DNA of 64,000 nucleotides, taken from IMG/VR virus record IMGVR_UViG_3300042878_001497, positions 1-64,000 of that record. The stretch is one strand, 5' to 3'. Both the position numbers and the translations under genes were made by a program. The notes below the pieces were generated by a model. It was not told the origin of the DNA, ran no database searches, and was given only the letters and a program-made list of their open reading frames with translations. Positions 51,616 to 64,000 of this stretch are shown piece by piece (position 1 is the first letter of the stretch; each line of letters begins with the position of its first letter). The stretch is from a virus.

Positions 51616-51619
51616 GTAT

Positions 51620-51652
51620 AGGTGTCGTAGCACCACCTTAAAAAAACACTAA
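51620..51652 (+). ncRNA. preQ1 class I riboswitch-like aptamer (queD-queE operon)
   Basis: P1 AGGUG/CACCU; loop UCGUAGCAC; tail UAAAAAAACACUAA; ATG at 51654. Confidence 0.72.
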
Positions 51653-51653
51653 T

Positions 51654-51929
51654 ATGGCAAAAAAGCAGTTATTGACTGAACCGGTCCTTCCTAAGGACAG
51701 TATTATCAATCCCGAACTCTACCACAAGGTAAAAGGGACCAATTCTAAGATTGATACCAAGTTTAAGCACTTGGAGAAGATGCCTGATCAAAAATGGCAT
51801 CAAATTATTTCTTTTATTAAATCTGGCGTTCGAATTGTAGGCTACGGAATCATTCCTTTTGATTTGGTAGCAGCTGCAATCGTTCTTATATTTAGTGAAG
51901 TAATCGGTATTATTGAAGAATTAGTATGA
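51654..51929 (+). CDS. Small membrane protein, first gene of queD-queE operon
   Basis: C-terminal hydrophobic segment; ATGA overlap with queD. Confidence 0.65.
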   Translation: MAKKQLLTEPVLPKDSIINPELYHKVKGTNSKIDTKFKHLEKMPDQKWHQIISFIKSGVRIVGYGIIPFDLVAAAIVLIFSEVIGIIEELV

Positions 51930-52390
51930 GCACATTTAGATCAACAAAAGTATTTGATGGTTACTCAACAGTATTCCGTCAATGGAAAGCCGAAGGAACA
52001 CACTGCAGATTCCTTCACGGCTATGGAGTAAGTTTAAAAGTATGGTTCGAAGGTGAACTTGACGAACGTAACTGGGTATGGGATTTCGGAGGTATGAAAC
52101 GTGCTACTGGAACTATTGACGGTATGAATCCTAAAGCATGGATGGATCATATGCTCGACCATACTACAATTATTGCAGAAGATGATCCGTATCTTTCTTA
52201 CTTCCAGAATATGTACACAGAAGGTATGATTCAATTACGAGTTATTCCAGCTACTGGAGCAGAGCGTTTTGCAGAGTATTTCTACAATAAACTGAATACA
52301 TTTATTCAAGAAGAAACAGATAATCGTGTTAAAGTAGTTCAAGTTGAATTTCGTGAGCACGAAAAGAACACAGCATTTTATAAAGGTTAA
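51926..52390 (+). CDS. queD: 6-carboxy-5,6,7,8-tetrahydropterin synthase
   Basis: HCRFLHGY; WDFG; LDH; GAERFA; FREH. Confidence 0.88.
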   Translation: MSTFRSTKVFDGYSTVFRQWKAEGTHCRFLHGYGVSLKVWFEGELDERNWVWDFGGMKRATGTIDGMNPKAWMDHMLDHTTIIAEDDPYLSYFQNMYTEGMIQLRVIPATGAERFAEYFYNKLNTFIQEETDNRVKVVQVEFREHEKNTAFYKG

Positions 52391-52392
52391 TT

Positions 52393-53175
52393 ATGCCATT
52401 AGGAAGAATAGAAGATTATAGTAAAGTTCTACCGATTGTAGAGCTTTACACTTGCATCCAGTCAGAAGGCAGCCGTGCCGGCCGTCCTACTGTTGCAGTC
52501 CGTACTACAGGCTGTACCCACCGCTGCTACTTCGGAGAAGGCGGATGGTGTGATAGCTGGTACACTTCAATCCATCCGGAGAAAGGTAAATACACTTTCC
52601 AGGATATTATCAACATTTACGATCAGAATCCTGAAATTAAGGAGATGATGCTGACGGGCGGTTCACCGACCATGCACCCTAAGCTTGTAAATGAACTAAC
52701 TCACTTTGCAAATGAAAGGCAAATTATCATCACAATCGAAACAGAAGGGTCTGCTTTCCTCGAAACAGATCATCCTATTGGGCTTATATCTTTCAGCCCT
52801 AAATTTAGCAACAGCGTGCCTGTACTTGGGACTACTACACCTCTTGGGGATATTGTAGACGAGAAACTTATCAAGACTCACAACCGTTACCGTCTCAATA
52901 AAGAGTCGATTGCTAAGTCAATGACTTACCATTCGGACTACCATATGAAGGTAGTAGTAAACCCAGTGGAGGACCCTCAGACATGGGCAGAGATTAAGTC
53001 TTTCCTAGATGAACTACAGGTACCTAAGCATAAGATTTGGATCATGCCTCCGGGGGATAATCGTCAGGAACTTATCCGAGTTTACCCAGCGGTAATTCAA
53101 TGGTGTACAGACAATATGTACAACTTCACCGGCCGTGAACACATCATTGCTTTTGATACTAAAAGAGAAGTTTAA
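52393..53175 (+). CDS. queE: 7-carboxy-7-deazaguanine synthase (radical SAM)
   Basis: IQSEG...G; GCTHRC..WCDS; TGGSP; IETEG; SPK. Confidence 0.9.
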   Translation: MPLGRIEDYSKVLPIVELYTCIQSEGSRAGRPTVAVRTTGCTHRCYFGEGGWCDSWYTSIHPEKGKYTFQDIINIYDQNPEIKEMMLTGGSPTMHPKLVNELTHFANERQIIITIETEGSAFLETDHPIGLISFSPKFSNSVPVLGTTTPLGDIVDEKLIKTHNRYRLNKESIAKSMTYHSDYHMKVVVNPVEDPQTWAEIKSFLDELQVPKHKIWIMPPGDNRQELIRVYPAVIQWCTDNMYNFTGREHIIAFDTKREV

Positions 53176-53529: not shown

Positions 53530-53721
53530 ATGACATTAGGACAGGTTATAACAGTAGGAGATGATTGGTACCAGGTTATTAGAACAGTTAGAGAAGGTCG
53601 TGAATGGGATGTTGAACTTCTTAAACAGTACTGGTTTTGTTCGCATACCTTCCGTAAGGATGGTTTACTCTATTTTTGCCGAGCGATTGAAAAAGTTGAA
53701 TTTGAAGAAATAACAGAGTGA
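53530..53721 (+). CDS. Small hypothetical protein
   Basis: Packed ORF. Confidence 0.55.
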   Translation: MTLGQVITVGDDWYQVIRTVREGREWDVELLKQYWFCSHTFRKDGLLYFCRAIEKVEFEEITE

Positions 53722-54392
53722 TTGCAATACTAGGAGGAACAGGGTTGCTGGGAAAAGAGTTACAAAAGCTAGATTCTTCCTTAGTCTGTACGGGCCGGGA
53801 AATTGATATTACTAACTTTAAAGAAGTCTTCTACTACCTTAATAAAGTAAACCCGGATACTGTAGTCAACGCAGCTGCAATAACAAATTCCATAGAGGTT
53901 TCTGAGAATCCTATTCCTGCTATAGACGTTAATATTATAGGTGCTGCTAATATAGCTAAGTACTGTCAGCAATATGGTAAGAGATTGGTATATATTAGCA
54001 CAGACTACGTCTATCCCGGAACTGGTAACCATGTAGAGGATGATGCTCTATACCCAAATAACGAATATGCGTGGACTAAATTAGGGGGAGAATGTTCTTC
54101 TAGATTGGTGAAAGATCATTGTATAATTCGTACTAGTTTTGGAAGTAGAAAATTTCCTTATCCTGCTGCATATATAAATTTATTTACAAGTAAAGAATAC
54201 GTAGGTGTGCTTGCTCCTCAAATCTTAAAAATTATACAGAGTAAACTTAACGGAATTGTAAATGTAGGAGGTTACAGAAAAAGTTCATATATTTACGCAT
54301 CACAGTACAGCAAGGTTGACAAAATTCAATTAGAACATAGTAAAGATTTTAGCCTAAACACAGCAAAATATAATGAGAATTTCCCAGAGTGA
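53718..54392 (+). CDS. RmlD-like NDP-sugar reductase
   Basis: GGTGLLG; NAAA; ISTDYVY; YAWTKLGGE; IIRTS. Confidence 0.85.
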   Translation: MIAILGGTGLLGKELQKLDSSLVCTGREIDITNFKEVFYYLNKVNPDTVVNAAAITNSIEVSENPIPAIDVNIIGAANIAKYCQQYGKRLVYISTDYVYPGTGNHVEDDALYPNNEYAWTKLGGECSSRLVKDHCIIRTSFGSRKFPYPAAYINLFTSKEYVGVLAPQILKIIQSKLNGIVNVGGYRKSSYIYASQYSKVDKIQLEHSKDFSLNTAKYNENFPE

Positions 54393-55605
54393 TTCATGCC
54401 CGATAACCGGAACTTCAGAAAGACTTAAGTACTTTTCTCTAGGCGAAATGCCGCTTGTTAATAATCTTGCCGATACTTTAGAAGAATCTTTAACCTGCAA
54501 AAAGATTCCTTTAGAACTAAACTATTTTGCAGAATCAAAACTTACTGCTTTAACTACTTTTGTAGACAGTCAGTCTTTGTTTAGTAACTACCTTTACAAG
54601 TCTGGAGTTAACACTCCCTACATTTCTCATAGTAGAAAAATGTTCAAAGATGTACGGAAGCTCTTACAACTTAAAGACCAGGACCTTATTGTAGACATTG
54701 GAGGTAATGATGGAACACTTCTTAAAACTTTTCGAGAAACTTCTAAAACATCCCTACAGTACCTAAATATTGATGGTTCTGAAAACATCACACAGTACTC
54801 TAAAGAACAGGGAATTAATACACTCTGCGAGTTTTTTAATGAAGATACCCCTACCCGAGTTAAAACTTTAGCCAAAGTTGTTGTATCCACAAATGTTTTT
54901 CAACATTTACAGGATACTAATTCTTTTGTTAGAGGGGTAAAAAAACTTCTACAATCAGACGGTGTATGGGTACTAGAATTTCCGTACTGGCTTCATGATA
55001 TGAAGACCAAGCAATTTGACCAGGTGTACCATGAGCATATGTACTACTACACAGTTACTCCGCTAGTAGCAATGATGCAAAAACACGAGTTGGAAGTTTT
55101 ACGAGTAGTTCCTCAAAAAATACATGGAGGTACTTTGCGTCTAATCATAGGGCATTTAGGAGGTAATCAACACCTAAAAGATAGTAGTGTAGAAGTTTAC
55201 CTAAAGAGAGAATCTAAACTTACACCCAAGTTCTACCAGCAGTGGGGAGCAAAAATTAAACAGCATTTGGTATCCTGTGAGAGTGAACTAAAGTACCTAA
55301 AAGGTAAAGGTAAGACCCTGGTAGGATTTGCTGCAAGTGCTAAGGGATGTGTCTTTCTAAACAGTGCCGGGATAGATTGTAAAGTACTTGATTTCATTAT
55401 CGATGATACTGATATAAAACAAGGCAAATTTATGCCGGGTACCGGACTAGAAATTAAAGGGAGAGGAGATGTAGATTTTGAACAAATTGATTACATTCTT
55501 ATACTCTCTCATAATTTTAGTGATCATATCATAAAAAGTCTTAAAGACGAAGGATATGAAGGTAAGTTTGTTGTGTGTTTACCTTCTTATAAAGTACTAT
55601 CATGA
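54373..55605 (+). CDS. NDP-hexose C-methyltransferase-like protein
   Basis: LGEMPLVN; DIGGNDGTLL; FDQVYHEH; IHGGTLR; AASAKG; KQGKFMPG. Confidence 0.85.
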   Translation: MRISQSDSCPITGTSERLKYFSLGEMPLVNNLADTLEESLTCKKIPLELNYFAESKLTALTTFVDSQSLFSNYLYKSGVNTPYISHSRKMFKDVRKLLQLKDQDLIVDIGGNDGTLLKTFRETSKTSLQYLNIDGSENITQYSKEQGINTLCEFFNEDTPTRVKTLAKVVVSTNVFQHLQDTNSFVRGVKKLLQSDGVWVLEFPYWLHDMKTKQFDQVYHEHMYYYTVTPLVAMMQKHELEVLRVVPQKIHGGTLRLIIGHLGGNQHLKDSSVEVYLKRESKLTPKFYQQWGAKIKQHLVSCESELKYLKGKGKTLVGFAASAKGCVFLNSAGIDCKVLDFIIDDTDIKQGKFMPGTGLEIKGRGDVDFEQIDYILILSHNFSDHIIKSLKDEGYEGKFVVCLPSYKVLS

Positions 55606-56378
55606 ATTCAATCCCAGTAATAGGAACAGCAATTGTAAACACGCCCTACTGGCTATACCGGCTGATTGCTAGTGTAGACTACCCGGTGGATAACTTTGTT
55701 ATCTTTAATAACAACGGTCGAGGAGAAATCACAGAAGAGCTTGACAATCTAGCTAAACTCTCTCATAAGTTTATTAAGAAAATTACAGTATGCCACTTAC
55801 CTGCTAATCTAGGTGTGCCTGGAGCATTTAACCTTATTATAAAAAGTTATATAAATTCTCCTAGCTGGTTGATAGTAAACTACGATGTAGCTTTTGGACC
55901 AGGCTTCTTAAAAGAGATGGCAGAGAAAGCTTCTGACCCGGAAGTAGGAATGGTACATGGTAAAGCAGGTGATTTTGATTTACCGAGCTGGGATGTATTC
56001 CTAATTAAAGACTGGGTAGTACAGCAGTACGGACTCTTTGACGAAAACTTAACCCCAGCTTACTGCGAAGATGCAGATTATTTTATGAGATTTGTGCATA
56101 GGCCTATAAAAGTAGTAAAGCAGCTAGACAGTATTTATTACCACGGCCCTGGTGTAGATTACTACGAACACGGAAGTCAAACCAAAAAAGGAGAACCTGC
56201 ACTAGCAGCAAAATTAGATCAGGTTAACGAAATAAATTTTGAATATATGTTTAAAAAGTGGGGTGAAGGTTGGAGATGGGTAAACCCACTACCTACACCT
56301 TTTGATATAGAAGGAACTCCTATCTCAACAACTACTTTTGATTTAGAATTTGTACGCAAAAAACATTTAGGCTTTTAA
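55602..56378 (+). CDS. GT2-like glycosyltransferase
   Basis: NLGVPGAFN; NYDV; GLFDENLTPAYCEDADY. Confidence 0.75.
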   Translation: MNSIPVIGTAIVNTPYWLYRLIASVDYPVDNFVIFNNNGRGEITEELDNLAKLSHKFIKKITVCHLPANLGVPGAFNLIIKSYINSPSWLIVNYDVAFGPGFLKEMAEKASDPEVGMVHGKAGDFDLPSWDVFLIKDWVVQQYGLFDENLTPAYCEDADYFMRFVHRPIKVVKQLDSIYYHGPGVDYYEHGSQTKKGEPALAAKLDQVNEINFEYMFKKWGEGWRWVNPLPTPFDIEGTPISTTTFDLEFVRKKHLGF

Positions 56379-56379
56379 T

Positions 56380-57054
56380 ATGGACGAATATACTTTATAC
56401 GACGCTGAACCGGATTCACAGTGGGGAATCATTACAGGAAATTTAGCACAACACAACCCTCAGCAGAATCCACGATTCTGGGTGGTTGATAATTTTTATA
56501 AGAATCCCGACCAAATTAGGGAGTACGGTCTCTCGCAAGTATACTTTGAGGGGGAAGGAGCAGTGGGTTGGAGAACCCGTAAGCAGTTCCTTTTTGATGG
56601 ACTCAAAGAGCAGTTTGAAAAAATTACAAACAAGAAGATTTTAGATCATACCCCGGAAGGAACCGGCTGGTACGATGTAGGTATTAACGGACGCTTCCAG
56701 GCCTGTGAAGCAGGAACTAAGACGGTATTTCACTGCGATAGCCAGCAATGGGCTGCAGTTCTCTATCTAACTCCAGATGCTCCTCCCCAGAGCGGTACTA
56801 GCTTCTACCGACATAAGGAGACTAAAGTTAGACATAGTTCTGAGATTGCTTGGGGTACCGGGGAAGAACTGGCCACATTTAATCAAAAGACCTTTGTTGA
56901 TCCTACTCCTTTTGAGAGAGTAGATACAGTTGGTAACGTTTATAACAGGCTTGTTATTTTTGATGGAAAGCTTATTCACTCCGGTAATGATTACTTTGGA
57001 TGGGATATTCCTTCTAGCAGGTTCTTTCAAATTTTCTTTTTTGATGTTGAGTAA
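56380..57054 (+). CDS. 2OG-Fe(II) oxygenase-like protein
   Basis: VVDNFY..P; HCD; VLYL; GTSFY; NRLVIFDG.LIHS; SR. Confidence 0.75.
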   Translation: MDEYTLYDAEPDSQWGIITGNLAQHNPQQNPRFWVVDNFYKNPDQIREYGLSQVYFEGEGAVGWRTRKQFLFDGLKEQFEKITNKKILDHTPEGTGWYDVGINGRFQACEAGTKTVFHCDSQQWAAVLYLTPDAPPQSGTSFYRHKETKVRHSSEIAWGTGEELATFNQKTFVDPTPFERVDTVGNVYNRLVIFDGKLIHSGNDYFGWDIPSSRFFQIFFFDVE

Positions 57055-57409
57055 AGTTTTTTTAATTGACATCGACGGTACAATCTGCGATGATATCAAG
57101 AACGAAGAAAGCCACCTGTACCCGGCCGCTAACCCTTTGCCCAATGCTAGGGATATTATCAATAAATGGTACGATGAAGGTAGCGTAATTACTTTCTTTA
57201 CTGCCCGAGAATCCAAAGATAGAGCAGTAACAGAGGAGTGGCTTCACCGCCACGGTTTCAAGTACCACGGGCTTGTAATGGACAAGCCTAGAATTAAAGA
57301 TGGACAGGAGTATGTCTGGATTGATAACAGGAAAGTTAGAGCAATCACCTATCTTGGTACTTGGTCCGAACTAACAGAAGTAGATGCAAGAATACAAACC
57401 TTTCAGTAA
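57044..57409 (+). CDS. Small HAD-family phosphatase
   Basis: IDIDGTI; FTAR; MDKPR; WIDN. Confidence 0.75.
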   Translation: MLSKVFLIDIDGTICDDIKNEESHLYPAANPLPNARDIINKWYDEGSVITFFTARESKDRAVTEEWLHRHGFKYHGLVMDKPRIKDGQEYVWIDNRKVRAITYLGTWSELTEVDARIQTFQ

Positions 57410-58404
57410 TGAACAACTTAGATAAAGCATACCAGGCACTCCTACAGGACATCCTAGATAACGGAGTGAAAAAGGAAGACAGAACAGGTACTGGAACTAT
57501 CTCAGTATTTGGTCGTCAAATTAGACATAAAATGTCCGAAGGTTATCCTTTGCTTACTATCAAGAAAATGGCATTCAAGACTATGGTAACTGAGTTACTA
57601 TGGTTTTTGAAAGGAGATACCAATATCAAGTATTTGGTTGAGAATGGATGTAACATATGGACTGGGGATGCTTATAAGAATTATTCAAGTAAAGTTCAAC
57701 CATGGGAACCTCATTCAGATCTGAATCATTTCATTGAACGAATCAAAACTGATGATAAGTTTGCTAAGAAGTGGGGTGAATTAGGTCCAATTTACGGTAA
57801 GCAATGGAGAGCATTTGATGAAGAGGAATGGGGTGGTATAGACCAAATCCAAAACCTAATTAACGACCTCAAAACAAACCCAGACTCAAGACGATTAATG
57901 GTTACAGCTTGGAATCCATCCTATCAGCATCAAATGGTTCTTCCGCCTTGTCATTATGGATTTCAAGTCTATACTCGTGAATTACATTTGGATGAGCGAA
58001 TTGACATTTATAATGGTGATAGAATTCCCATGAATCAAAGTAGCGATTATTTTCACGAGCATATGGATGCTTACGGTATTCCTCGTAGAGCAATCTCTTT
58101 AATGTGGAATCAACGTTCAGTAGATACATTCTTAGGTTTACCTTTCAATATTGCCTCTTACGGACTATTGCTTGAAATGATTGCTAAAGAAGTAAACATG
58201 GTACCTGACGAATTGATTGGTAATTTAGGAGATGTTCATTTGTATTCAAATCACATTGAACAAGCAAAAGAACAAATCACTAGAAAGCCAATGACATTAC
58301 CTACAGTAGAGATAACAGAACTAAATTTGTTGGAAGGTAGTGTATCGGTAGAACTAAAAAATTATATTCACCACGACCCAATTAAAGCACCTTTATCAAA
58401 TTAA
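57409..58404 (+). CDS. thyA: Thymidylate synthase
   Basis: DRTGTGT; ELLWFL; PIYGKQWR; LPPCH; QRSVDTFLGLPFNIASY; HLYSNH. Confidence 0.97.
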   Translation: MNNLDKAYQALLQDILDNGVKKEDRTGTGTISVFGRQIRHKMSEGYPLLTIKKMAFKTMVTELLWFLKGDTNIKYLVENGCNIWTGDAYKNYSSKVQPWEPHSDLNHFIERIKTDDKFAKKWGELGPIYGKQWRAFDEEEWGGIDQIQNLINDLKTNPDSRRLMVTAWNPSYQHQMVLPPCHYGFQVYTRELHLDERIDIYNGDRIPMNQSSDYFHEHMDAYGIPRRAISLMWNQRSVDTFLGLPFNIASYGLLLEMIAKEVNMVPDELIGNLGDVHLYSNHIEQAKEQITRKPMTLPTVEITELNLLEGSVSVELKNYIHHDPIKAPLSN

Positions 58405-58406
58405 TT

Positions 58407-59000
58407 ATGAAAAAACTAATACTACTATTTTTATTTCCTATCTCGCTGTTTGGACAGCTCCGTGATAGTGTTTACTTTAATAACAACAATTTTATTGTTA
58501 ACTACTCCGAAACCCTAGAAGGACCTCGTTCGATACGTTATACAGTGCTTTGTCCGACCGGCACAGCTTCAAGATCGGGTATGGAGTTCTACAAGGAGAA
58601 AAAGATTCACACCTCAGATCACAAAGACTATGAAGCAAACGAATGGGATAAAGGGCACATGGCCCCCGCGGCATCTTTTAATTGCAATCGTGATATGCTA
58701 TACGGTACTTTCACCTATGTCAATTCTAGCCTTCAACAACAAAGTCTAAATAGAGGAGTTTGGAAAAAACTCGAAGTAAGAGAAAGAGAATTAGCTACAT
58801 CAGGACCAGTACGAGTTTTTATCCGAGTTGAATACCCTACTACTCCTGTTAGAGTTACAACCGGTGCTGCTATACCTTTAGGGTACTATAAGGAAATAAA
58901 AGTTGGAAATAAGAGAGAATGTTACTATTTTAAGAACGTAGCCCCGTCTACTTCGGACTTGGAGGCTTTTAAATGTACTTGCAAAAACGTTATCCAATGA
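58407..59000 (+). CDS. Secreted DNA/RNA non-specific endonuclease (NucA/EndA-like)
   Basis: Signal peptide; WDKGHMAPA; LNRGVWKKLE; IP..YYK. Confidence 0.85.
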   Translation: MKKLILLFLFPISLFGQLRDSVYFNNNNFIVNYSETLEGPRSIRYTVLCPTGTASRSGMEFYKEKKIHTSDHKDYEANEWDKGHMAPAASFNCNRDMLYGTFTYVNSSLQQQSLNRGVWKKLEVRERELATSGPVRVFIRVEYPTTPVRVTTGAAIPLGYYKEIKVGNKRECYYFKNVAPSTSDLEAFKCTCKNVIQ

Positions 59001-59905: not shown

Positions 59906-60303
59906 TCAACACCCACCCGATCAAGAAATCAGACCTAGGCTTCCACGGAAATCTCTTCGGTGGAAAGCTTATGGCCTGGATCGATGCGGCAGCAGCCTCT
60001 TATGCAATGGAGGTGTGTCACAATCGCAGAATGGTTACCGTCTGCATTGATAAGTGTGTGTTTAAGAAGCCTGCAAAGGAAGGGTCTCTGCTAAAGATAT
60101 ACGGGGATACCCTACATATCGGCACTACTAGCGTAACGCTTTACCTGGAAGGAAGAAGCTTTAACGTCTACACCCACGGTGAGGATGTAGTGCTGAGTAC
60201 CAACATTACCTTTGTCCGCATTGACGAAGAAGGAAGTGCTATTCCAATTTCAGATACAGTAAGAGAAAATTTAAAAAAGTATTTAGATGCAAAGTCTATT
60301 TGA
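59896..60303 (+). CDS. HotDog-fold acyl-CoA thioesterase
   Basis: HGNLFGGKLMAWID; MVTV; FKKP; TFVRID. Confidence 0.85.
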   Translation: MQLINTHPIKKSDLGFHGNLFGGKLMAWIDAAAASYAMEVCHNRRMVTVCIDKCVFKKPAKEGSLLKIYGDTLHIGTTSVTLYLEGRSFNVYTHGEDVVLSTNITFVRIDEEGSAIPISDTVRENLKKYLDAKSI

Positions 60304-60799
60304 TATTAAAGAGATCGAAATCCAGACTAAAATCCTTGCCAAGAAGATTTCAGCTGAACACCAAGGAGACAAAACTCCCGTTGTAATGGTAGGACTGTTG
60401 AACGGAGCATTTATGTTCTATGCAGACCTGGTACGCAATATGGGCATTGATGTGGAATGTGACTTCATGAGAGTTAAAAGCTACACAGCCCAGTTCAAGC
60501 AAGGAGATATTAAGATTATTAAAGATCTCGAGACTCCTATCAGAGGAAAGCACGTGTACCTGGTAGACGATATCTACGATACCGGCTCTACTATGAAAGC
60601 ATTAATTGAGTACCTAGAGGTAAAAAAGCCCGCCTCTATCTCAATTGTAACTCTACTCCGTAGAGAAACCTCTCCAATCCCGGATCAAGCCTTCTACAAG
60701 TACCATGCATTCACCATCAAGGATGAATGGGTAGTAGGATTTGGAATGGATGACGAAAAAGGTTATTCAAGAAATCTCAATGGAGTATTTGCTCTGTAA
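60287..60799 (+). CDS. hpt: Hypoxanthine-guanine phosphoribosyltransferase
   Basis: LLNGAFMFYADL; VDDIYDTGST; WVVGFGMD. Confidence 0.9.
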   Translation: MQSLFDIKEIEIQTKILAKKISAEHQGDKTPVVMVGLLNGAFMFYADLVRNMGIDVECDFMRVKSYTAQFKQGDIKIIKDLETPIRGKHVYLVDDIYDTGSTMKALIEYLEVKKPASISIVTLLRRETSPIPDQAFYKYHAFTIKDEWVVGFGMDDEKGYSRNLNGVFAL

Positions 60800-60817
60800 G
60801 AGAAGTTTTCGTATATT
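60789..60817 (+). promoter_or_regulatory. Host sigmaA-type promoter TTG-N20-TATATT upstream of riboswitch candidate 2
   Basis: Recurrent motif. Confidence 0.65.
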
Positions 60818-60822
60818 AAACA

Positions 60823-60856
60823 AAGGTGTTCGAAGCACCACCTTAAAAAAACAATT
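60823..60856 (+). ncRNA. preQ1 class I riboswitch-like aptamer (folE operon)
   Basis: P1 AAGGUG/CACCUU; loop UUCGAAGCAC; tail AAAAAAACAAUU; ATG at 60859. Confidence 0.72.
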
Positions 60857-60858
60857 AT

Positions 60859-61569
60859 ATGGCAGATAAAAAACGTTATGATGTAGAGTTAGCTCAAGCC
60901 GGCTTTGCCAACGGTATTTCCTCTCAACTGGCAGAGAAATTTAACATGCATAAGATGAACGATATCTCTCTTACCGAACAAGAGAAATACGTTATTATTG
61001 AAAGAGCAGCTAAAGCATTCGGTGAGTTTCTCGATGCATTAGGAGTTGATTGGAAGAACGATCCTAACTCTTCAGATACTCCACGTCGTGTAGCAAAAGC
61101 TTATGTAAACGATTTATGGTACGGCCGATTCAATCCTATGCCTGCTATCACAGCCTTCCCTTCAGATGGTTACGACGGCATTGTATTTGAAGGAAATATT
61201 CCTTTGACTTCGATGTGTTCACATCACCATCAGACCATTACCGGTCGAGTTCATATCGGCTACATCCCCTCTAAGGACGGAAAGGTAATCGGGCTTTCTA
61301 AACTGAATCGTATTGTAGAGCATTTCGGCCGTCGAGGAGCTATTCAGGAGCAGCTTACTGTTGCTATCCATAACGCAGTTGATACTGTGTGTGAAGGTAA
61401 CCTTGGAGTAGCTGTAATGATTGAGGCAGGTCATAACTGTGTATCATGCCGAGGCACCAAGCACGCCGGTGCATCAATGAAAACATCAAAGCTTTCAGGC
61501 AGCTTCCTTGAAGAAGATTCAGCCCGTGCAGAGTTTTATGAATTTGTAAAAGGATACGCATGCAAGTAA
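60859..61569 (+). CDS. folE: GTP cyclohydrolase I
   Basis: TPRRVAK; SMCSHH; GLSKLNR; IQEQLT; HNCVSCRG. Confidence 0.95.
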   Translation: MADKKRYDVELAQAGFANGISSQLAEKFNMHKMNDISLTEQEKYVIIERAAKAFGEFLDALGVDWKNDPNSSDTPRRVAKAYVNDLWYGRFNPMPAITAFPSDGYDGIVFEGNIPLTSMCSHHHQTITGRVHIGYIPSKDGKVIGLSKLNRIVEHFGRRGAIQEQLTVAIHNAVDTVCEGNLGVAVMIEAGHNCVSCRGTKHAGASMKTSKLSGSFLEEDSARAEFYEFVKGYACK

Positions 61570-62054
61570 AATTTGTTGACGAAGTAGAACTATTTAATTC
61601 TACCTTCGGTAAGCCGAATAACTACACCCCTATCATTCCTAATGATAAGAAGCTTACAGACTTTGTTGTTAACTTTATTAAAGAAGAAACCGATGAACTC
61701 GCCGAAGCAATCGAAAATAAAGACATCGTGGAAGTGTTGGATGCTATTTGTGATCTCCTGTATGTTGCCGTGGGCAATGCTACTATGGTCTTTGGCCTCA
61801 AAGATAAGTTAGAGGCAGCTTACGCTGAGGTACAGGCATCGAATATGTCTAAGAGCTGTGAGACCTACGATGAAGCAATGGAAACTATCGATGCTCATTA
61901 TAAAGACCATGGTACTTGTTACACTCGCCAGGTGGGAGATCGATGGGTTGTATACCGTGAATCGGACGATAAGGTAATGAAGTCAATCAATTACTTTGCT
62001 CCTAACCTAGAGCAATTTTTTACCGAAGAAGAAATTAAAAACTCCAAGCAATGA
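61560..62054 (+). CDS. MazG/PRA-PH-like NTP pyrophosphohydrolase
   Basis: EETDEL...EVLDAICDLLYV; EVQASNMSK; KVMKS. Confidence 0.8.
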   Translation: MQVKFVDEVELFNSTFGKPNNYTPIIPNDKKLTDFVVNFIKEETDELAEAIENKDIVEVLDAICDLLYVAVGNATMVFGLKDKLEAAYAEVQASNMSKSCETYDEAMETIDAHYKDHGTCYTRQVGDRWVVYRESDDKVMKSINYFAPNLEQFFTEEEIKNSKQ

Positions 62055-62239
62055 CACCCCAGCAGCTAATCGATCAAAATAAAACCTTCTCAGAAGAGTT
62101 GCAGCAATGGATTGTACCTCTTATCTTTGTAGACGAAGCTCTTCAGATGAAAACTGCCCAGGATGTAGATGCTAGTATGAAGAGACTTGAAGAAGTAATG
62201 CAAGACCTCAACACAGTAATTAGCAAGATAAATGATTAA
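62051..62239 (+). CDS. Small hypothetical protein
   Basis: Packed ORF. Confidence 0.55.
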   Translation: MTPQQLIDQNKTFSEELQQWIVPLIFVDEALQMKTAQDVDASMKRLEEVMQDLNTVISKIND

Positions 62240-63062
62240 AATTGCCCATGAGTCTCCAAAAGCTATTTTTAAAGAGATTCAAGAACTTACCGACTACGAC
62301 TACGCTCTAGTTCACCTCTTTGAAGAGGATCCTGAATACCTTCAGAAGTTTAAGGATGCTCTGGCAGCCGGCCGAGAAGTTATTCTAGATAATTCTATTT
62401 TTGAGTTAGAAGAAGCTTTTGATGCTAATCGTTTTGCTTACTGGATTAACGAACTTAAGCCAACCTGGTACATCGTTCCTGACTCGTTAGAGAATGTAGA
62501 GAAGACTATGTCTAATATGGCAGAATGGAATATACACTATGCTGATAAAGTTCCTGCAGAATGTAAGAAGATTGGAGTAGTACAGGGAAAGACTTACTCT
62601 CAGATAGTCAATTGCTACGAATACATGGTCAGTATAGCCGAAGTAGATATGGTGGCAATCTCTTTCGATTACAGTTATTTCCAAGAGAAATTCCCTCATC
62701 CTAACAAATACGTTAGCTGGATGCTAGGCCGGGTACAGTTGCTAGGTCGAATGCTTAAAGACGGAGTTATTAATCCTGACGTACCTCACCACCTTTTAGG
62801 TTGCGGACTACCTCAAGAGTTTCAATTCTACCGAGAGGCTAAGTACGATTGGATTTACTCCCTAGATACTTCCAATCCTGTGGTTCACGGACTGAAGGAG
62901 ATTTACTACAAAGACCAAGGACTGTGGAATAAAGAATCTCAGAAGCTCTTTACCATGATTAACTCCGAAGTTACGGAGAAGCAAATGGAGGTCATTCGTC
63001 ATAATGTTTCACGCTTTAGATGGTTTGCAAATGGAAACGCGCCCGTGGGTAACATTCTTTAG
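62232..63062 (+). CDS. dpdA: TGT-fold guanine transglycosylase (DpdA-like, probably DpdA3 type)
   Basis: ILDNS; IVPD; GVVQG; HHLLG; SLDTSNP correspond to TGT/DpdA catalytic motifs; clustered with folE. Confidence 0.7.
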   Translation: MIKIAHESPKAIFKEIQELTDYDYALVHLFEEDPEYLQKFKDALAAGREVILDNSIFELEEAFDANRFAYWINELKPTWYIVPDSLENVEKTMSNMAEWNIHYADKVPAECKKIGVVQGKTYSQIVNCYEYMVSIAEVDMVAISFDYSYFQEKFPHPNKYVSWMLGRVQLLGRMLKDGVINPDVPHHLLGCGLPQEFQFYREAKYDWIYSLDTSNPVVHGLKEIYYKDQGLWNKESQKLFTMINSEVTEKQMEVIRHNVSRFRWFANGNAPVGNIL

Positions 63063-63567
63063 TCAGACAGGTTCTGAGATCGTTCAGATCTCGGAAGCTC
63101 TAGGGCGGTGGCCGGATATGATTATTAGTAATCGCCGACCGACTGATGCTAGAATTATTAGTCCTGCTCTTCCTAAAGATCGTCTGTACTTTACCTCCAA
63201 TAAGCCAGAAGCTTACGAATACTTACATTATCTCCGTCAGGCAAAAGATCCGATTGTAACTCTACACGGATGGCTTAGAGTACTTCCTGAAGAGGTTTGT
63301 GACAGTTACGAAGTTTACAACGGTCATCCAGGTTTGATTACCCGCTACCCTGAACTGAAGGGTAAAGATCCTCAGATGCGAGCTTTTGAAGGAGATTATA
63401 ATACTGGTGGTTGCGTGATTCATAAAGTAACTCCCGGAGTAGACGAAGGAGAGATTCTAATGGAAAAAGAAATTAGCATTAGACTGTTGGATCTTGACGG
63501 ACTATTCCGTACATTACATAAGACTTCAGTCAATATGTGGATTGAATTCCTTAAAGAACGTCTATGA
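63031..63567 (+). CDS. PurN-like formyltransferase (candidate preQ1 formyltransferase)
   Basis: FFSQTGS; LHGWLRVL; NGHPG; GCVIHKVTPGVDEGEI. Confidence 0.8.
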   Translation: METRPWVTFFSQTGSEIVQISEALGRWPDMIISNRRPTDARIISPALPKDRLYFTSNKPEAYEYLHYLRQAKDPIVTLHGWLRVLPEEVCDSYEVYNGHPGLITRYPELKGKDPQMRAFEGDYNTGGCVIHKVTPGVDEGEILMEKEISIRLLDLDGLFRTLHKTSVNMWIEFLKERL

Positions 63568-64000
63568 TTAAAAGAGTTGCATTAGTAGGAGCTAGTAGTA
63601 CCGGTAAGACGACTGTGTATGAGCTTCTTAAGAATCAGTTCCCGAAGTGGGAGTTTGTAAATGAGAGTACTCGTTCGGTAGCTCGTTACGGCTTTCCTAT
63701 CAATGAACTAGGTACTACAGAAACTCAGTTAGCTATCTCAAGCTTTCATTTAGAGGCATTGCTTAAACCTTATAATCTTATTCTGGATCGTTGTTACTTA
63801 GATCTAATAGTTTACTCTCGTCATATGCCGGGACTATCTCAATCAGGCTTAGATTTTATCGAAGCTACCTGGCAGCGAGTTCAAGACGAATATACTCATT
63901 ATATCTACTTTCCTATCGAATTCGATGCAGTCGATGACGGAGAAAGAAGTGTTGATGAAGATTGGAGAAAAATTATCGACGAAGAGTTCAAGTATCAATT
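63564..64000 (+). CDS. P-loop nucleotide-kinase-like protein (AAA_28/NadR-like), truncated by window end
   Basis: MIKRVALVGASSTGKTT; ESTR; ILDRCYLD; DDGER. Confidence 0.75.
   Translation, partial: MIKRVALVGASSTGKTTVYELLKNQFPKWEFVNESTRSVARYGFPINELGTTETQLAISSFHLEALLKPYNLILDRCYLDLIVYSRHMPGLSQSGLDFIEATWQRVQDEYTHYIYFPIEFDAVDDGERSVDEDWRKIIDEEFKYQ

Follow-up and report, generated by a model that had tools for sequence, protein, structure and literature searches.

A formyl-preQ1 DNA-hypermodification operon in an uncultivated immuto-like phage and a possible nucleotide-level role of its transglycosylase DpdA3

When a phage replaces the guanine of its DNA with a 7-deazaguanine, is the base exchanged in DNA that has already been replicated, or is a modified dGTP substitute made beforehand and incorporated by the phage polymerase? 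This question is raised by a gene cluster in the IMG/VR virus record IMGVR_UViG_3300042878_001497, a single-contig virus genome of 173,415 bp (CheckV completeness 100%); the window analysed here is the first 64 kb of this genome, and the 16 kb beyond it were also read. The first-pass annotation had recognized hpt, folE, a MazG-like gene, a DpdA-like gene, a PurN-like gene and a P-loop kinase gene in a row at positions 60287-64000, with queC, queD and queE elsewhere in the window and no queF in it, and had proposed that they replace guanine at the level of the nucleotide pool. All these genes are found on the plus strand, which carries every gene of the window, and the sequence beyond the window shows QueF to be the very next gene (Table 1), so that the preQ1 biosynthesis pathway is complete. 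It is near certain that the cluster is a DNA-hypermodification operon for formyl-preQ1 (fdPreQ1, 7-formamidomethyl-7-deazaguanine) of an uncultivated immuto-like phage, the host of which is probably a member of Bacteroidota. That base exchange and formylation precede polymerisation, with a deoxynucleotide or deoxynucleoside of guanine as the substrate in place of DNA, is a proposition that we regard as evenly balanced, and the evidence that bears on it comes from the transglycosylase DpdA3, the formyltransferase DpdN and an adjacent kinase.

The gene order links the cluster to that of Flavobacterium phage immuto 2-6A, the DNA of which shows no dG peak and contains fdPreQ1 in its place, all G being replaced (Cui et al. 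2023, PMC10516641). Both genomes share the order phosphoribosyltransferase (PRTase), FolE, MazG-type hydrolase, small open reading frame (ORF), DpdA3, DpdN, AAA_28 kinase, QueF, PolA and GroES/EL, and the encoded proteins are 70.5% (DpdA3), 58% (DpdN), 65% (kinase) and 54% (MazG-like) identical; in immuto 2-6A, the MazG-type protein is annotated as "hydrolase", DpdN is YP_010114479 and the kinase is annotated as "thymidylate kinase". The two phages differ in genome size (160 kb in immuto 2-6A and 173 kb here) and in the PRTase (131 aa in immuto 2-6A compared to a full-length HGPRT of 170 aa here), and the modified base was measured in immuto 2-6A and is predicted for the present phage. A megablast search of the region against phage records detects no DNA match. 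Neither the kinase nor the small ORF is discussed in the published description of immuto 2-6A, and the same holds for the riboswitch-like leaders described below. The reading of these genes as a 7-deazaguanine DNA-modification cluster is borne out by the homology of DpdA3 and DpdN together with the complete pathway, and the cluster adds an uncultivated phage to the already described fdPreQ1 system.

The DpdA-like ORF is, as the first-pass annotation surmised, a DpdA-type transglycosylase, given its homology to named DpdA3 proteins and its predicted fold. DpdA3 has been defined in exactly three groups, represented by immuto 2-6A, CP220 and phiST (Cui et al. 2023, PMC10516641), and the protein examined here is similar to members of all three, namely the "DNA guanine transglycosylase" of immuto 2-6A (E 1e-121), hypothetical proteins of the Campylobacter CP220 group (37-40% identity, E ~1e-40) and a protein of Cellulophaga phage phiST (27% identity, E 2e-9). 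The family is large, with 3450 homologues in a word-indexed database, 1425 representatives in an exhaustive search and more than 500 viral contigs. The 276-aa ORF has no Pfam or NCBIfam match, and the canonical tRNA-guanine transglycosylase (TGT) family, PF01702, has no match at E <= 1 in this protein or elsewhere in the genome. A structural model that AlphaFold produced from an alignment of 58 diverse homologues (pLDDT 96) nevertheless retrieves TGTs without exception among its top 50 Foldseek matches (prob 1.00, E ~1e-8), and superimposes on TGT in VIA-align with Z 18 and a root-mean-square deviation of 3.0-3.4 Å over 233-241 residues. The modelled structure of DpdA3 is thus the TGT (beta/alpha)8-barrel. 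Three aspartates, D53 (in LDNS), D84 and D212 (in DTSNP), are invariant in the 58 homologues; D53 and D84 may correspond to D102 and D156 of TGT, a correspondence suggested by motif resemblance only. A search of PDB sequences yields a single on-target match, a weak one (E 0.23), to the bacterial DNA-guanine transglycosylase DpdA (7ui4), with which the HLLG...D-x-S-x-P stretch of DpdA3 aligns. Canonical TGT has a zinc site, formed by a Cys/His cluster after the catalytic Asp. No Cys follows D212 in the DpdA3 sequence, and therefore this site is absent from DpdA3.

The acidity of DpdA3 proteins (isoelectric point (pI) 5.2-6.1, family median 5.5) was considered as an argument against DNA binding and dropped, the DNA-acting DpdA1 of phage 9g being equally acidic (pI 5.64). 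Prediction of a complex between DpdA3 and the kinase gave a median score of 0.24, short of the 0.32 mark, which speaks neither for nor against such a complex. A DpdA3 homologue with a 160-aa C-terminal extension that looked GNAT-like by eye (P0263) has no Pfam match, and the extension shows no BLAST similarity to the GNAT parts of the proteins from loci L050 and L055 described below. In other members of the family, the fusion partner is an N-terminal domain of 317 aa and unknown kind, DUF3310 or a NUMOD3 (homing-endonuclease-type) region (P0126, 586 aa; P0249; P0128).

The PurN-like protein corresponds to DpdN of the published formyl-preQ1 phage, which is what the similarity to the immuto 2-6A protein (E 1e-79) indicates. 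A profile search against PDB sequences retrieves PurN proteins as all of the best matches (E 5e-13). Residues N97, H99 and D138 are invariant in 24 DpdN homologues and align with the NxHxSLLP motif and D144 of PurN, the NGHP and D motifs being kept; the catalytic residues of PurN are His108 and Asp144 (PMC3261824). The invariant DpdN motif FSQTGSE (here FFSQTGSE) aligns with the N-terminal loop FSGNGSN of PurN, so that an S-x-x-G-S loop is retained along with the Asn/His/Asp catalytic motifs. This loop of PurN we take to be the one that holds the 5'-phosphate of glycinamide ribonucleotide (GAR). DpdN differs from PurN in its size (~180 aa) and divergent central part, in being encoded beside DpdA3 and sometimes fused to it (the 447-aa DpdA3::DpdN proteins P0173 and P0231), and in the amine that is formylated, predicted to be that of preQ1 in place of that of GAR; formyl transfer to the preQ1 amine is a prediction in the literature as well (PMC10516641). 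By our own reasoning, GAR and dPreQ1-5'-monophosphate have similar geometry, each with a primary aminomethyl group 4-5 bonds from C1' of a 5'-phosphorylated pentose. Because this geometry is shared and the phosphate loop of PurN is kept, the free base appears disfavoured as the substrate of DpdN; a mononucleotide and a flipped nucleotide in DNA would fit these features alike.

The gene that follows dpdN encodes a P-loop protein of the AAA_28 family (hereafter Kin). The structural model of Kin (pLDDT 91) is most similar to the ribosylnicotinamide-kinase domain of NadR (TMq 0.75-0.80, ~3 Å), followed by thymidylate, deoxycytidine and deoxyguanosine kinases, and the conserved motifs comprise Walker A, LDR and an Arg-bearing (lid) DDGxRS segment. 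Among the PHROG families, Kin matches phrog_2107, "thymidylate kinase", with an E-value of 8e-22 and, weakly, phrog_3462, an NMN-adenylyltransferase family. Going by the model, Kin has a nucleoside/nucleotide-kinase fold; its closest structural matches do not include a DNA-dependent ATPase, and it is unrelated to DpdB, the ParB-like partner of bacterial DpdA.

A P-loop gene of the nucleoside/nucleotide-kinase type is located immediately beside DpdA3 in every sequenced DpdA3 lineage. In immuto-like and Campylobacter CP220-type phages, this is an AAA_28 kinase downstream of DpdA3 (Kin is 30% identical to CP220 gp057, E 1e-22), whereas in phiST and Chryseobacterium phage MA9V-3 it is an AAA_18 kinase upstream of DpdA3; the AAA_18 proteins of the latter two phages are homologous to each other (32% identity, E 1e-18) and not to the AAA_28 type. 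It appears from these comparisons that two unrelated families of small-molecule kinases occupy the DpdA3-adjacent position in two DpdA3 clades. In CP220, a fusion of an HD-phosphohydrolase with an AAA_33 kinase, DpdA3 and the AAA_28 "thymidylate kinase" form a three-gene islet amid tail genes. The order in phiST is FolE, MazG, small ORF, AAA_18 kinase-type protein, DpdA3 and PolIII; in MA9V-3, an AAA_18/33 protein gene ends 3 nt before the DpdA3-like gene, and a gene of the dCTP-deaminase/dUTPase superfamily lies nearby.

The same pairing is observed in environmental sequences. In a sample of 80 IMG/VR loci with DpdA3 at 52-88% identity (counts refer to loci with enough sequence), the order QueD, QueE, FolE, MazG, small ORF, DpdA3, DpdN, Kin, QueF, PolA is nearly invariant. 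Of 70 loci, 68 have Kin downstream of DpdA3, at most 3.5 kb away, and 67 have DpdN; Kin is retained in loci that lack DpdN (L050, L054 and L055). A search with five kinase queries finds a match within 8 kb in 73 of the 80 DpdA3 loci vs none of 17 DpdA1 loci, and no kinase or MazG is annotated at the DpdA gene of phage 9g, which is of the DpdA1 type. Homologues of Kin (~31% identity) are also present in ~89 Streptomyces phage records, in replication modules (e.g., in Samisti12, next to PolIII alpha and a MazG-like gene); a DpdA3 homology search did not find DpdA3 in these phages. The Streptomyces homologues would argue that Kin is a genuine kinase of nucleotide metabolism.

A sister lineage provides a further connection. 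This lineage has no DpdN, and its kinase extends at the C-terminus into a GNAT acetyltransferase domain (14 protein clusters, 310-318 aa, P0275-P0288), in the context FolE ... PRA-PH, 58-aa ORF, DpdA3, Kin::GNAT, QueF, PolA (Table 1). In L055, a 508-aa HAD+GNAT protein is encoded between DpdA3 and Kin. The Kin::GNAT fusion argues for action on a nucleotide: it is hard to explain if the preQ1 amine is acylated on DNA, and natural if both domains act on one nucleotide.

A nucleotide-level step is favoured here because a kinase stands beside DpdA3 in all lineages, because Kin::GNAT and DpdA3::DpdN fusions exist, and because of the fold of the kinase and the phosphate loop of DpdN. In the mechanism that we envisage, DpdA3 would exchange guanine for preQ1 and DpdN would formylate the aminomethyl group. 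A nucleotide phosphohydrolase (here of the MazG type) and/or nucleases would supply dGMP and lower dGTP; DpdA3 would turn dGMP into dPreQ1-monophosphate with release of guanine; DpdN, a PurN relative with the GAR-phosphate loop, would formylate dPreQ1-monophosphate; the adjacent kinase would phosphorylate the product, which host nucleoside diphosphate kinase would convert to the triphosphate for incorporation by the phage PolA encoded just downstream; and HGPRT would recycle the released guanine via GMP to GTP for FolE. Candidate substrates of DpdA3 are dG, dGMP and dGTP. The sequence of the reactions would be reflected in that of the genes, DpdA3-DpdN-Kin. The fuller proposal, that DpdA3 is no DNA transglycosylase but the first TGT-fold enzyme to introduce a 7-deazaguanine in exchange for guanine into free deoxynucleotides or deoxynucleosides and that, with a phosphohydrolase, an amine-acylating enzyme (DpdN or the kinase-fused GNAT) and a dedicated kinase, it yields a modified dGTP substitute before replication, is advanced tentatively, its chances being in our view slightly less than even. 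In the three DpdA3 phages tested, replacement is complete, whereas the other DpdA types reach 30% or less (PMC10516641). A passage of the same paper gives ADG nucleoside in the cytoplasm of CP220-infected cells (PMC10516641). The nucleotide-level idea itself is not new because a modified-dGTP route was proposed for Campylobacter phages already in 2019, according to the passage in PMC6884629 that cites the proposal.

The published model holds that the operon makes free preQ1, that DpdA3 swaps G for it in newly replicated DNA and that dPreQ1 is formylated by DpdN once it is part of the DNA. On this view, HGPRT, the kinase and the MazG-like enzyme would be encoded by ordinary genes of nucleotide metabolism and salvage that belong to the replication module and travel along with the cluster. 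This model is a serious contender to which we assign a sizeable probability, clearly below an even one. The model agrees with the TGT fold of DpdA3, with the DNA-acting nature of its sole, weak PDB sequence match, 7ui4, and with the location of the cluster next to a polymerase, a common gathering place of nucleotide-metabolism genes. To our knowledge, every characterised enzyme of the TGT family acts on a polynucleotide, either tRNA or DNA, and we know of no mononucleotide transglycosylase with this fold. Action on DNA has been demonstrated for DpdA1 and bacterial DpdA (PMC10164549, PMC6884629), and post-replicative insertion is what the authors who defined DpdA3 concluded for all 7-deazaguanine modifications, with no mention of the kinase (Cui et al. 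2023, PMC10516641). The sole basis of this conclusion is the presence of DpdA homologues, by now known from each of these phages, and no later papers treating DpdA3 were found in the literature searched. However, the published model leaves unexplained that a kinase of one of two unrelated families adjoins DpdA3 in all lineages, even in the CP220 islet amid tail genes, that none is found beside DpdA1 and that the Kin::GNAT fusion recurs; it also requires exchange at every G on both strands, far from the extent reached by the DpdA enzymes demonstrated to act on DNA, and DpdA3 could not be made active in Escherichia coli, where no DNA modification was obtained (PMC10516641). The adjacency and a high efficiency would be accounted for if insertion into DNA needed ATP and the P-loop protein were an ATPase helper of DpdA3, much as the insertion of preQ0 into DNA by bacterial DpdA depends on the ATP that DpdB hydrolyses (PMC10164549). 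This is improbable given the kinase fold of Kin, close to the ribosylnicotinamide kinase of NadR, thymidylate kinase and deoxycytidine kinase and unrelated to DpdB, and given that Kin homologues occur in phages without DpdA; moreover, two non-homologous kinase families in one position fit a chemical requirement better than a co-evolved partner. Still less probable, indeed very unlikely, is that Kin acts as a ribosylnicotinamide kinase and supports NAD(P) synthesis to the benefit of QueF, which depends on NADPH, in a cluster that works as published in all other respects. Such a role would match the best structural hit of Kin and the weak phrog_3462 similarity, and in this phage Kin abuts QueF, but the match to the thymidylate kinase PHROG is far stronger, the fusion partner is a GNAT acyltransferase and not an NAD enzyme, and CP220-type phages keep the DpdA3-Kin pair with no QueF annotated near it, their dADG not being expected to need QueF (PMC10516641).

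Several further considerations weigh against the nucleotide-level route that we prefer. The kinase family is apparently not exclusive to deazaguanine systems, so that its presence alone is not specific, and the MazG-like family, too, is common in phages that have no deazaguanine genes (337 records), as expected under the published model. The DpdA1 control set of 17 loci is small and phylogenetically narrow, and adjacency is inherited within clades, which reduces the observations on the kinase to only ~2-3 independent events. The phosphate held by a PurN-type loop could just as well belong to the DNA backbone, at a nucleotide that is flipped out. The MazG-like gene, present in 55 of 73 related loci, is not detected within 8 kb in the other 18. 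In the most divergent subgroup, a 144-145-aa ORF between FolE and DpdA3 looks like a nuclease of the PD-(D/E)xK or NERD type in the place of MazG; its candidacy as a remote MazG was rejected (hhalign probability 0.1%). The acidic metal-binding motif of the MazG-like protein is intact (E42, E43, E46, E58, D61 and D65 are invariant), but searches of PDB sequences with the protein and its profile found nothing significant and no link to MazZ or to an enzyme of known specificity. No substrate specificity can be read from these sequences, and nothing indicates dGTP as the substrate of the MazG-like enzyme. Of the replacement at the pool level proposed in the first-pass annotation, the nucleotide-level step is favoured by the comparative evidence, and the destruction of dGTP by the MazG-like enzyme is the weakest part. 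The pre-replicative reading is thus partly supported; it is neither shown nor refuted, and better supported than the literature suggests.

Regulation of the pathway bears on the order of the reactions. The 42-nt sequence that ends at the folE start codon resembles the preQ1-I riboswitch. When 161 nt were searched, it scored 21.8 bits against RF00522 (E 0.013), less than the gathering score, which is 39. A near-identical second copy precedes the operon that consists of an ORF, queD and queE; on its own, this copy has no Rfam PreQ1 match, and an Rfam search over 44-64 kb (20 kb) gives no match at E <= 1. The leader is conserved upstream of folE in many related loci (L005-L058) and has a P1 stem of 4 bp that occurs in the variants GGUG/CACC, UGAG/CUCA, UGUG/CACA, GGAG/CUCC and AGUG/CACU, a loop of sequence UCGUAG(A/C)AC and a tail rich in A that adjoins the start codon. 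Across 20 leaders, 96% of the cells of the P1 stem are paired, with 2 compensatory pairs (GC/UA/AU and AU/UA); the score of the stem was reached by none of 500 shuffles, and all slid controls scored far lower. The leaders probably throttle folE and queDE when free preQ1 accumulates. If they do sense preQ1, DpdA3 would consume free preQ1, and formylation would therefore follow the exchange, in line with the gene order.

Overlap of start and stop codons from gene to gene (the stop codon of the kinase gene and the QueF gene have a single base, 64082, in common) is the reason why FolE through QueF reads as one operon. The small acidic ORF of the operon has no family match in searches of the Pfam, PHROG and NCBIfam type; in related genomes it encodes 58-76 aa and lies directly upstream of DpdA3 in nearly all loci that contain MazG. 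The motif ...MVP(L/Y)S(I/V)A... is conserved in this helical protein. Among the related loci, HGPRT is limited to the closest relatives; it likely fits salvage of the guanine that either route would release in stoichiometric amounts, to GMP and GTP for FolE. Nucleases of four unrelated families are repeatedly found inside or beside the deazaguanine operon (Table 1), an arrangement that recalls phages in which unmodified DNA is broken down as a source of precursors, and one of these nucleases, a DNA/RNA non-specific endonuclease, recurs next to the cluster. Where the DpdA3 loci are most divergent (L064:5772-7481; L070:1973-3892; L075:5440-8004), the large subunit of ribonucleotide reductase or a DNA polymerase of family B is encoded directly upstream of DpdA3 or of QueD-DpdA3, and these clusters are thus again located amid genes of dNTP supply and replication. 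Elsewhere in this genome, genes for sugar modification lie between queE and thyA (53718-57054), namely an RmlD-like reductase, a C-methyltransferase (PF08484), a family 2 glycosyltransferase and DUF6445, which may act on DNA, on the host envelope or on some part of the virion; the thymidylate-synthase homologue (57361-58404) is 347 aa long and contains insertions when compared with the Pfam model of 266 positions, and its immuto 2-6A counterpart has 424 aa. Directly 3' of the polymerase, as in immuto 2-6A, are the genes for Hsp20, GroES and GroEL (genome 67476-70179).

Table 1. Coordinates of the deazaguanine genes, leaders and neighbouring features (positions in the window unless the genome or a related locus, L, is named)
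Feature	Coordinates	Strand	Basis and remarks
QueC (preQ0 synthase), 291 aa	45031..45906	+	PF06508 E 6e-37; TIGR00364 E 4e-38
Second leader copy, before ORF-queD-queE operon	51617..51659	+	Near-identical to, and aligned with, the folE leader
QueD (6-carboxytetrahydropterin synthase)	51926..52390	+	PF01242 E 8.5e-15; TIGR03367
QueE (radical SAM 7-carboxy-7-deazaguanine synthase)	52393..53175	+	PF04055 at cut-off; TIGR03365 E 3e-14
DNA/RNA non-specific endonuclease (EndoNS)	58407..59000	+	PF01223 E 3e-19
HGPRT, 170 aa	60287..60799	+	TIGR01203 150.7 bits (cut-off 150, barely met); PF00156 E 1e-23
PreQ1-I-like leader, ends at folE start codon	60819..60860	+	RF00522, full-length sub-threshold match
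FolE, GTP cyclohydrolase I (first step)	60859..61569	+	PF01227 E 9e-44; phrog_2197
MazG/PRA-PH-type all-alpha nucleoside-triphosphate pyrophosphohydrolase	61560..62054	+	PF01503 E 1e-12; phrog_671 E 6.5e-30
Conserved small acidic ORF, 62 aa	62051..62239	+	No family match; overlaps DpdA3 start
DpdA3, predicted TGT-fold guanine:7-deazaguanine transglycosylase, 276 aa	62232..63062	+	Homology and predicted fold
DpdN, PurN-like formyltransferase	63031..63567	+	PF00551 E 7e-13; probable start M at 63031, longest ORF from 63004
Kin, AAA_28 P-loop kinase, 172 aa	63564..64082 in genome (window cuts the gene at 64000)	+	PF13521 E 2.6e-15
QueF, 304 aa, bimodular	genome 64082-64996, past window		QueF_N + QueF domains
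PolA, family A DNA polymerase	genome 64998-67367, past window
Kin::GNAT	L050:6123-7079; L085:7001-7933; L088:1179-2114
EndoNS in related loci	L016, L026-L028 (between Kin and QueF)
SNase	L088:2118-2462
S1-P1 nuclease	L085:1730-2497
PD-(D/E)xK/NERD-like nuclease	L072:7567-8004, L084:3121-3648

The hydroxymethylcytosine (hmC) pathway of phage T4 consists of the dCTPase gp56, the dCMP hydroxymethylase gp42 and the dNMP kinase gp1, and the dZ pathway of S-2L and PhiVC8 includes MazZ, PurZ and DatZ. The DpdA3 system resembles both in the complete replacement of one base and in the presence, side by side and next to a phage polymerase, of genes for a putative NTP pyrophosphohydrolase, a base-altering enzyme and a putative nucleotide kinase; if the nucleotide-level route holds, its logic would run parallel to theirs. 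It differs in that the base-altering enzyme appears to be a TGT-fold transglycosylase, of a family known only to act on polynucleotides; no homology of the cluster proteins to gp56, gp42, gp1 or PurZ was found or is claimed. Common to the bacterial DpdA/DpdB/DpdC system and the present one are a TGT-fold enzyme for replacement of G by a 7-deazaguanine and an NTP-using partner encoded next to it (PMC10164549). Bacterial DpdA, however, is a protein of 436 aa that modifies <0.1% of G at specific sites, compared to the minimal 276-aa barrel of DpdA3 and total replacement in the characterised phages; its partner DpdB is a ParB-like ATPase (PMC10164549), whereas the neighbour of DpdA3 has a predicted nucleotide-kinase fold; and DpdA3 lacks the Cys/His cluster after the catalytic Asp. 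The phages with DpdA1 (Enterobacteria phage 9g and CAjan; PMC6884629) also encode FolE, QueD, QueE and QueC and a short TGT-fold DpdA next to the polymerase, which is as acidic as DpdA3 (pI 5.6). They differ in partial replacement (~25-32% of G; PMC6884629), in the lack of QueF and DpdN and in having no kinase-family gene within 8 kb in the 17 loci.

The literature on this subject spoke of "modified dGTP" in 2019 and of "post-replicative" insertion in 2023, a shift that no enzymology accompanied, and the DpdA3-kinase pairing, the fusions and the PurN-type loop now provide a concrete hypothesis that involves four proteins. The lineage with Kin::GNAT leads to the prediction of an acetylated preQ1 (acetamidomethyl-7-deazaguanine) in DNA, a modification that we believe to be undescribed. 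The homologue and contig counts show that the module is abundant in environmental viromes. If DpdA3 does act at the nucleotide level, this would explain why only DpdA3 phages replace all of their guanine, and these enzymes would be a means of making 7-substituted 7-deaza-dGTP analogues. Moreover, an enzymatic activity new to the TGT fold would be defined, and the full substitution of a purine in DNA would have a third route in nature.

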